From Dictyostelium discoideum (taxonomy: Eukaryota), in assembly GCA_000004695.1 (NCBI GenBank), contig CM000151.3, positions 736,001 through 800,000 on the forward strand: DNA of 64,000 nucleotides, read 5' to 3'. Under the pieces are notes generated by a model. The model was not told where the DNA came from. It ran no database searches and was given only the letters and a program-made list of their open reading frames with translations. Shown one piece after another: positions 13,012 to 14,030 of this stretch. The position numbers and the translations under genes were made by a program. Position 1 is the stretch's first letter. The number at the start of each line of letters is the position of its first letter.

Positions 13012-13070
13012 GGGAAACCAACAGACTAACGCCTCATAAAATTACTTTTCACACTTTAATTTTAATAAAA
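13012..13070 (+). repeat. Dispersed ~60-70-nt repeat family, copy 1. Copy 2 is inverted at 13945-14030 and copy 3 is at 19888-19965.
   Basis: The shared core is aaccaac..(a/g)ct..cgc(c)tcataaaat(t/a)acttttc(a/t)c...tttaat..tgaaattttt(t)ac..ccaacc. Copies 1 and 2 form an inverted pair about 900 bp apart around the cryptic small gene. Copy 3 sits in intron 1 of the USP gene. Confidence 0.6.
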
Positions 13071-13195
13071 AAAAAAAAAAACAATATCAACAATTCCATG
13101 ATTAAACAAAATTCTGTGTTTGAATTTATTTTTAATATTTTTTTTTTAAGATCTATATTTTTAAAAAATCCAAAGAATTTAATTTTAAAATTCTT

Positions 13196-13508
13196 TTACA
13201 ATCCTGTTGAAGAAGTAACTAAACCAAGAACAATAGCAAGTCCACCAACTATTATTAGTACACCTGAAACTATTCCTGTGTTTTCATTTGATCCTTGAAT
13301 ATTATTTGGAGAATTATTTGAATAGTTTTTGCTATTTAACAAATTTGTTTGGATTTTATTTTTATTTGAGATTTTTCCTAATGAAGAAATTGAGTCTAAA
13401 ATTTTAAAAAAAATAAAAATAAAAATAAAAAAAATAAAAGAAAATTAGTTTTTTATATTTTATTAATATAAAAGAGTTTTAATTTATTTGACCTACTGAT
13501 TATTGTCA
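13196..13508 (-). CDS. Cryptic 2-exon gene for a 69-aa protein with a C-terminal transmembrane helix, [70 protein letters not shown]. It is invisible in the ORF track.
   Basis: Exon 1 is 13 nt (13496-13508, ATGACAATAATCA) with donor GTAGGT. The acceptor AG lies at 13396-13397. Exon 2 is 13196-13395 and is in phase, ending TAA. It lies antisense to the rejected plus-strand ORF 12954-13298. The call is speculative because exon 1 is tiny. Confidence 0.3.
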
Positions 13509-13944
13509 TTTCTATTTTAAAAATTTTTTATAGTTTTCAAAGTTTTAATTAATAAACAAATTGTTTTTTTTTTATTTTTTATTTTTTTTTTTTTATTCTG
13601 TTCATTTACTCTATTTATAGGAGTAAAATTATCATATGTAGTTTACTTGTTCACCCATTGTAAAATGAATCACACTTTAAGAATTTAATAAAAATTTTTT
13701 TTTTTTTTACATTAAAATTATAAAAATAACCAATACCACATCATTAATATTTTTATTGGTTTATTAGTAAATAATTATTTCCTTTTCAAATTTTTAAAAT
13801 GTCTAAACTCTATTTTTTTTTTTTTAAGGAATTTTAGAAATAAAAATTATTATTAAAAATAAAAAAGAGTTTAATATATTTTATGTAAATGGGGTTTTGA
13901 AAAAAAAAAAAAAATAATTAAATAATAATAATTTATAAAAAAGC

Positions 13945-14030
13945 AAAGGTTGGCTGGGTAAAATTTCAGTGAAAAGTTATTTTATGAGGAGCCAGTTGGT
14001 TGCCTCATTTTTCCCACCCACTTGTTTTTT
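13945..14030 (-). repeat. Dispersed repeat copy 2, in inverted orientation relative to copy 1
   Basis: The reverse complement reads ...gaggcaaccaactggctcctcataaaataacttttcactgaaattttacccagccaaccttt, which aligns to copies 1 and 3. Confidence 0.6.

Follow-up and report, generated by a model that had tools for sequence, protein, structure and literature searches.

A non-coding repeat of roughly 120 bp is present as three diverged copies, within 7 kb of one another, in a 64,000-nt stretch of the Dictyostelium discoideum genome (assembly GCA_000004695.1, contig CM000151.3, positions 736,001 to 800,000 of the forward strand), which is called the window below. Both orientations occur among the copies, named c1, c2 and c3 by position; all of them sit in introns or between genes, and their flanks have no common sequence. 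We interpret them as independent insertions of a short, non-coding and non-autonomous element with terminal inverted repeats (TIRs), similar to a miniature inverted-repeat transposable element (MITE). In our judgement, this interpretation has about an even chance of being correct. It carries with it mobility of the units and a transposase, both of which we infer, and it treats the inverted placement of c1 and c2, ~880 bp apart, as coincidental. All three copies probably belong to a new or as yet unplaced family within a known kind of element.

A three-copy repeat with a conserved core

An exact 16-mer, CATAAAATWACTTTTC, is shared by the three copies. It occurs three times in the window, where the expectation is 0.01, and none of 100 dinucleotide-preserving shuffles gives three occurrences. 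A sequence-only reading made earlier had reported three copies of one element in this DNA, and their places are confirmed here (Table 1). Local alignments reveal similarity over about 60-85 nt. The pairwise identity in the alignable part is 59-64% between c1 and c2, 62-67% between c1 and c3, and 68-74% between c2 and c3. A profile hidden Markov model of the three copies retrieves them at E = 4e-13 to 5e-18 in the 64-kb window, and the E-values of shorter and longer profiles taken together range from 1e-13 to 1e-29. No fourth copy is found in the window with the three-copy profile, and the longer profile gives the same result. The family was missed by a general repeat finder, whose output was overwhelmed by low-complexity A/T sequence.

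The layout of the unit comprises, in order, an A/T-rich outer inverted end, a G-rich block with the pattern (T/C)AAG.GGG, an A-run and a GG.AACCAAC block. The invariant core, C.CATAAAATWACTTTTC, comes next. In c2 and c3 it is followed by CTGAAATTTT.AC..CCAACC(ACCC) and the complementary outer end. The earlier description of the shared motif, which ran from the core to a terminal CCAACC, holds for its core in all three copies. Its 3' block, CTGAAATTTT(T)AC..CCAACC, is common to c2 and c3 only; c1 has an A-run in its place, and the 3' part of this copy has decayed to an A15 run. By our count from the alignments, ~18/20 columns of the core region are identical in c1, c2 and c3 vs ~50% elsewhere, and we estimate a p of about 0.01 for this excess of conservation. 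The units measure 112-129 bp, contain stop codons in every frame according to our reading, and stand out as G+C-richer islands.

Extra copies were also looked for in other data. A metagenome scan with an 18-mer gave >120 chance matches, the best extended one being the signal-peptide start of a bacterial gene, and in prokaryote genomes a search for the core together with CCAACC yielded only 11 chance matches, all bacterial. The 16-mer was not met in the literature searched, and no description of a ~120-bp MITE in Dictyostelium was found there.

Ends and flanks of the individual units

The c3 unit is located inside intron 1 of a USP22/Ubp8-type ubiquitin hydrolase gene, as had been proposed from the sequence alone and is now confirmed with splice junctions reconstructed by hand. 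In the predicted fold, its inverted ends pair as the closing stem (z = -1.87; 5/200 shuffles as good). The direct repeats that bracket these ends are candidate target-site duplications, exact at 10/10 positions and matching at 12/13 on extension. The whole window was scanned for this layout, defined as 13-nt inverted arms (<=1 mismatch, >=3 G/C) separated by 60-160 nt and having exact direct repeats of 10 nt no more than 3 nt away. The scan returned one match, c3, and 0 in 30 second-order Markov simulated windows, although its p-value is optimistic because the criteria were set after c3 was seen. By themselves, inverted arms of this quality are frequent in the window (19 observed vs 16 expected). 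That the complete layout coincides with one of only three repeat copies is hard to dismiss. The longer spacer between the G-block and the CCAAC-block in c3 is due to an internal 14-nt tandem duplication. Removal of c3 and one direct repeat would shorten the intron from 305 nt to 166 nt, which is close to the usual Dictyostelium intron size. If our interpretation is true, c3 explains why this intron has about twice the usual length. Another parse of c3, with an 8-bp duplication GAATATT(T/A) and ends starting from TAAGG in a hAT-like manner, was rejected; it leaves the outer 10-nt repeat over and fails for c2.

The c1 unit is delimited by its flanking direct repeats, and the score of this pair is equalled by 4/400 random non-coding loci examined with the same search grid. 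Sporadic direct repeats comparable to those of c1 occur about once per 3 kb by our count. On the same strand, a CDP-alcohol phosphotransferase gene ends with its stop codon ~125 nt upstream of the unit. The c2 unit is found 314 nt downstream of the stop codon of a gene with PH and senescence domains, again on the same strand, and is bounded by its own inverted ends, which align with each other over about 33-35 nt. The repeat finder placed its arms at 13935-13946/14022-14033 (12 nt, 92%) and at 13937-13953/14014-14030 (17 nt, 71%). A long closing stem is observed in its predicted fold (z = -2.16; 7/200 shuffles as good). The small hairpin ATGAGG-N13-CCTCAT, pointed out before in this copy, is indeed present and predicted to form.

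The lengths between the direct repeats agree among the three units, being 119, about 120 and 129 bp, the last including the 14-bp internal duplication. A Fisher combination of the three direct-repeat p-values (0.01, 0.27, 0.10) gives about 0.012 by our own calculation. The ends and flanking repeats of any one copy match well (10/10, 11/12, 12/13), in contrast to 60-70% identity between copies. Therefore, c1, c2 and c3 probably descended from already diverged source elements, with little decay after insertion. More and closer relatives are predicted elsewhere in the genome. In the mechanism that we propose, a transposase supplied in trans would bind the inverted ends and excise or copy the unit. 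The unit would then enter AT-rich non-coding DNA at a cut with a stagger of ~10 bp, and repair of this cut would yield the flanking direct repeats.

Several observations, besides the late choice of the scan criteria, weigh against independent MITE-like insertions. Only three copies are seen, all within 7 kb of the 64-kb window, and we estimate a probability of about 0.04 for such clustering under uniform placement; transposition over short distances or an origin in this neighbourhood would account for it. No recognisable inverted ends are present on c1, whose fold has no closing stem, and the direct-repeat candidates of c2 are not significant or are 2-6 nt off the ends. c2 and c3 have unlike sequences in the outer parts of their inverted ends. 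The best-conserved part is the internal core and not the ends, and an invariant core is an unusual pattern for neutrally decaying relics. As far as the sequence tells, this core may be a binding site needed for transposition or an RNA/DNA element in its own right. In addition, direct and inverted repeats are cheap in 78% A+T DNA, and Pfam scans revealed no transposase gene in the window.

The units resemble MITEs in their small size (about 115-130 bp) and lack of coding capacity, in the putative TIRs of c2 and c3 with predicted hairpin folding, in the flanking direct repeats of ~10-12 bp, and in the intronic or intergenic sites occupied in either orientation. They differ from MITEs in being represented by three diverged, clustered copies only, in having short ends that are unlike between copies, and in being best conserved internally. 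We know of no partner transposase or matching long inverted repeat for them. Mutator-like elements are among the superfamilies making 9-11-bp target-site duplications. The ~10-bp duplication is compatible with such elements, although repeat length alone does not assign a superfamily. The DNA transposons listed for D. discoideum are Tdd, DDT and thug, described as larger elements with transposases said to be unlike known ones; among them, thug-S is multicopy and intron-containing and is a source of hairpin-derived small RNAs (PMC5633606; PMC4894637). The units share with these families the kind of host genome and, in our interpretation, the character of class II elements with inverted ends. They are set apart from them by size, and this separation is made on published descriptions.

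If our interpretation is true, a short TIR element family exists in a dictyostelid genome whose catalogued DNA transposons, according to the published papers, are a few larger families. In that case, the three G+C-richer islands should not be taken for exons, promoters or genes of small RNAs. The finding has modest practical value, and the invariant core and an exon-like patch of c3, discussed below, are the only features that could lift the units above an ordinary repeat.

Table 1. Coordinates of the repeat copies, their parts and the surrounding genes in the window.
Feature	Position	Strand	Basis or remark
c1, similarity stretch	13008-13066	+	alignment to c2 and c3
c1, unit (119 bp)	12992-13110	+	delimited by flanking direct repeats
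c1, left flanking direct repeat ATTCTGTTTTTG	12980-12991		candidate target-site duplication; matches 13111-13122 at 11/12
c1, right flanking direct repeat ATTCTGTGTTTG	13111-13122		matches 12980-12991 at 11/12
c1, invariant 16-nt core CATAAAATTACTTTTC	13035-13050	+	
c2, similarity stretch	13945-14022	-	alignment to c1 and c3
c2, unit (~112 bp)	13930-14041	-	bounded by own inverted ends
c2, inverted end AATTTATAAAAAAGCAAAGGTTGGCTGGGTAAAAT	13930-13964		3' end of unit in element orientation
c2, other inverted end, reverse complement AAATTTAAATAAAAAAACAAGTGGGTGGGAAAAAT	14007-14041		fold, repeat finder, end alignment
c2, invariant 16-nt core CATAAAATAACTTTTC	13971-13986	-	
c2, small hairpin ATGAGG-N13-CCTCAT	13984-14008		predicted to form
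c3, similarity stretch	19884-19966	+	alignment to c1 and c2
c3, unit (129 bp), inside USP22-like intron 1	19846-19974	+	inverted ends and direct repeats
c3, left inverted end AATATTTTAAGGG	19846-19858		12/13 complementary to 19961-19973
c3, right inverted end CCCTTAGAATATT	19961-19973		12/13 complementary to 19846-19858
c3, left target-site-duplication candidate TTTTTATTTG	19836-19845		directly abuts left inverted end
c3, right target-site-duplication candidate TTTTTATTTG	19975-19984		within 1 nt of right inverted end
c3, invariant 16-nt core CATAAAATTACTTTTC	19911-19926	+	
c3, internal 14-nt tandem duplication AGTAAAAAAATAAA / AGTAAAAAAAAAAA	19860-19887		
USP22-like exon 2 patch AATTCTGAAATTTTAGATCCAACC	20182-20205	+	unexplained relative, not counted as a copy
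CDP-alcohol phosphotransferase gene, last exon	12741-12889	+	Pfam match; exon by our reading
Possible small spliced open reading frame	about 13199-13507	-	no Pfam match
Senescence/PH-domain gene	14344-16594	-	reading frame and protein matches
Pseudouridine synthase gene		+	Pfam match
USP22/Ubp8-type ubiquitin hydrolase gene, start codon	19175	+	protein and Pfam matches
USP22-like intron 1	19806-20110	+	splice junctions reconstructed by hand

Alternative explanations for the units

The sequence-only reading had suspected a MITE-like element, a suspicion that gains support from the above, and had pictured c1 and c2 as the ends of a single one, an architecture that is not supported. In that picture, c1 and c2 would be the TIRs of one non-autonomous ~1-kb element (13012-14030) that carries a small open reading frame (ORF), and c3 would be a solo end. 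The two copies are indeed inverted about 880 bp apart, and T-rich strings are found outside both outer ends. However, these strings provide the only match of the outer flanks, as low-complexity T-runs, and the target-site duplication sought just outside 13012 and 14030 likewise comes down to T-run matches. The presumed arms are just 59-64% identical, the interior has a plausible spliced small ORF, and G/C-containing 9-mers around c1 and c2 are unmatched in 12-21 kb apart from the element itself. Moreover, direct or inverted repeats bracket each copy separately. The 11/12 direct repeat flanks c1 on either side, c2 is self-closing through its inverted ends of ~33-35 nt, and c3, partnerless in the window, possesses inverted ends and direct repeats of its own. 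Therefore, the inverted c1/c2 arrangement looks like two insertions in opposite orientation, and three randomly oriented copies yield an opposite-orientation pair in 3/4 cases. We regard the single ~1-kb element as very unlikely.

A functional role would offer another explanation, which we consider unlikely. The units would be a hairpin-closed element, either a non-coding RNA of ~110-125 nt or a cis-acting RNA/DNA element, whose long terminal stem closes a loop showing the core C.CATAAAATWACTTTTC; as RNA, it would come from host transcripts or act within them. The core is far better conserved than the remainder, and closing stems are present in c2 and c3. The outer sequences of these two copies differ yet remain complementary within the copy (AATATT/AATATT in c3 and AATTTA/TAAATT in c2). 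With just two informative sequences and A/T-rich arms, these are candidate compensatory changes, and c1 is without a closing stem. All three copies are sense to local transcription, c1 and c2 past gene 3' ends and c3 in an intron, but an orientation of 3/3 has a chance probability of 1/8. The core folds no better than shuffles (z -1.2 to +0.4), no Rfam match is obtained at gathering or permissive thresholds, and no Dictyostelium upstream sequence element (DUSE) is near any copy. The flanking direct repeats of c3 and c1 would be left unexplained.

In a narrower form, the units would not be dead transposon remnants; they would represent an undescribed dictyostelid class of ~110-125 nt, hairpin-closed, whose stem stays complementary while its sequence changes and presents a ~20-nt single-stranded motif. 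Its members would be non-coding RNAs or RNA signals acting in cis, derived from host transcripts. To this form we attach a low probability, and in it the exon-like patch would point to the USP22-like gene as a source or an interaction partner of the units. There is a correspondingly small chance that the conserved core and the closing stem mark a functional element.

Known RNA classes were looked for in several ways. Rfam 15, which includes small nucleolar RNAs (snoRNAs), small nuclear RNAs and microRNA (miRNA) precursors, gave no match in the window at gathering thresholds, and at E up to 10 only low-complexity chance matches were obtained around the copies. The possibility, raised earlier, that the motif is a snoRNA or an element of untranslated regions thus finds no support in the Rfam searches or in the core folds. 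A box C/D snoRNA has a C box RUGAUGA near its 5' end, a D box CUGA near its 3' end and a terminal stem. This candidate was rejected from our reading of the copies: CUGA is present in c2 and c3 only and a C box is absent, the best approximation being AAUGAGG in c2, which c1 and c3 do not conserve. No tRNA or tRNA-like gene was found in the window with ARAGORN, and a tRNA-derived short interspersed element, which would need a tRNA-like 5' part with A and B boxes, was rejected on this result. A Dictyostelium miRNA precursor is expected to be a continuous hairpin with a folding energy below -0.2 kcal/mol/nt (PMC6161686). The values are -20.5 kcal/mol/140 nt (-0.15 per nt) for c3 and -23.5/124 nt (-0.19 per nt) for c2, and this class was rejected as well. 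In both folds pairing is confined to the ends, and the ~90 nt between them are largely unpaired.

The dictyostelid Class I RNAs were compared as well. Their DUSE was scanned with the consensus [AT]CCCA[CT]AA, expected ~60 nt upstream. Its 11 matches in the window are a chance number, and none is within several kb of a copy. The conserved 11-nt motif of Class I RNAs, which we take to be CCTTACAGCAA, is absent from the copies with 2 mismatches allowed. The units share with Class I RNAs the occurrence as short G+C-richer islands in AT-rich non-coding DNA and the combination of a terminal stem and a conserved unpaired motif with a highly variable remainder (PMC7919456). They differ from them in having no upstream DUSE, no 11-nt motif and no Rfam match, in their length (~110-125 nt vs ~60 nt), and in their closing stem, which is long vs 6 bp (PMC7919456). 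Elsewhere in the window, a perfect DUSE-like octamer, ACCCACAA, is located at 48891-48898 (-) in a G+C-richer island, and no recognisable small RNA gene is seen downstream of it.

The exon-like patch of c3 concerns exon 2 of the host gene. The 3' half of c3, AATGCTGAAATTTTTACATCCAACC (19936-19960), is identical at 22/25 positions, with one gap, to the patch 248 nt downstream on the same strand. This patch is the best non-family match of the c3 3' half in the window, with a score of 32 vs <=31 in 60 simulated windows. c2 matches the same exon 2 stretch (z about 5 by shuffling), and the 5' block of c1 is collinear with GGAAACCATCAGA of exon 2, although weakly, as 96/1000 shuffles score as high. 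When the null is drawn from real sequence, a match just as good lies within 400 nt for 0.9% of comparable 33-mers, and somewhere in the window for ~5% by our count with true paralogues removed. After roughly six implicit tests, we estimate p at about 0.03-0.06. From plants to mammals, USP22/Ubp8 orthologues conserve the exon 2 peptide, which has no extra length here; this marks the exon as ancestral, as opposed to an exonised element. The match may result from exon-fragment capture, from a short gene conversion or from chance, and on sequence grounds we treat it as a lead.

One could go further and derive the units from the exon, as a family private to this neighbourhood that began when part of USP22-like exon 2 was duplicated, through tandem duplication into intron 1 or through transduplication of a gene fragment, and then spread 6 kb upstream to two sites. 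Such an origin is quite improbable in our view. It would agree with exon 2 being the best non-family match of c3 and beating 60 simulated windows, with c2 matching the same stretch and the 5' block of c1 being collinear though weak, with all copies lying within 7 kb of the exon, and with the exon being the older sequence. However, the match is weaker against the real-sequence null, both nearby (0.9%) and window-wide (~5%), and the core common to c1, c2 and c3 is missing from the exon. The three copies are also closer to one another than to the exon, and the inverted ends and flanking direct repeats are left unexplained. No other USP22-like relic is found near c1 or c2, where tblastn of the protein vs 12880-14345 gave noise only. 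A USP22 pseudogene at this place was rejected on the same search.

Transposons carrying a captured host gene fragment are called Pack-type transduplicating elements. The units share with them direct repeats of ~10 bp and an internal segment that resembles a nearby host exon. They differ in that the exon match is short (about 25-40 nt) and of borderline significance and that long inverted ends are absent. A separate resemblance to exon 2 is observed upstream of the gene, in an intergenic island at 18652-18688 (+), which is 29/35 identical to the 3' splice site of exon 2 plus its first 33 nt (20105-20143) in a different frame. Its score is reached by 1/1000 shuffles, and the window-level chance is ~15% vs real sequence by our count, which makes it weaker evidence than the patch matched by c3.

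Three further candidates were examined and rejected. A coding exon or micro-ORF does not fit the copies, as all frames are closed and conservation does not exceed nucleotide identity. For a segmental duplication around c1 and c2, no shared G/C-containing 9-mers are found outside the element (12-21 kb). A promoter module would require a constant relation to gene starts, which is not observed: c3 is intronic, and c1 runs into the 3' end of an ORF that converges on it.

Genes and other repeats in the window

G+C makes up 22.4% of the window, where long A/T runs, short introns and AAT/CAA codon repeats are seen. Among its genes are those for a ComC-type EGF protein, family-3 G-protein-coupled receptors (GPCRs), an FNIP-repeat protein, a RapGAP and protein kinases. 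The best protein-database matches for two window genes come from other dictyostelids or distant eukaryotes, and no Dictyostelium-genus protein was returned.

Between c1 and c2, the possible small spliced ORF would encode ~70 aa with a hydrophobic C-terminus. It would have a 13-nt exon 1, a GTAGGT donor and an intron of ~98 nt. Directly downstream of c2 in element orientation, at 13898-13945 (-), a TATAAAT and a T15 run are followed by CAAAACCCC. TATAAAT with a T-run is a typical layout of a Dictyostelium core promoter. T-runs precede Dictyostelium transcription start sites according to published papers. The small ORF, or a transcript not yet annotated, may have its promoter in this stretch.

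In the USP22-like gene, the reconstructed intron 1 junctions restore ...DSKNPSTKRVKYRVWKPSDEE... and the conserved catalytic GLRGLNNLGNTCFMNS box. At the 3' end of this intron (20064-20110), an uninterrupted A-run of ~45 nt directly precedes the AG acceptor, and no T-rich tract is present there. Upstream of the start codon, two GT-rich blocks are found, GGAAATGTGTGTATGTGTGGGTTT (18562-18585) and GAGAGTGTGTGGGGTGTATC (18838-18858), which we presume to resemble the G-box/CA-rich promoter elements of Dictyostelium.

Larger repeats are present in other parts of the window. A tandem segmental duplication of ~2.1 kb with 82% identity (2012-4104 and 4969-7055) includes G+C-richer islands, e.g. 3077-3134 and 6003-6053. 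Strong mutual nucleotide similarity is observed within a cluster of paralogous ORFs at 37062-46211 (-). Two ORFs of this cluster were scanned with Pfam, and both, 37062-38294 and 40318-41442, are family-3 GPCR (7tm_3) genes. Finally, tandem repeats with a period of ~120 nt at 9700-10400 (-), located within a long ORF (9386-10867) without Pfam match, dominate every nearby-similarity scan.

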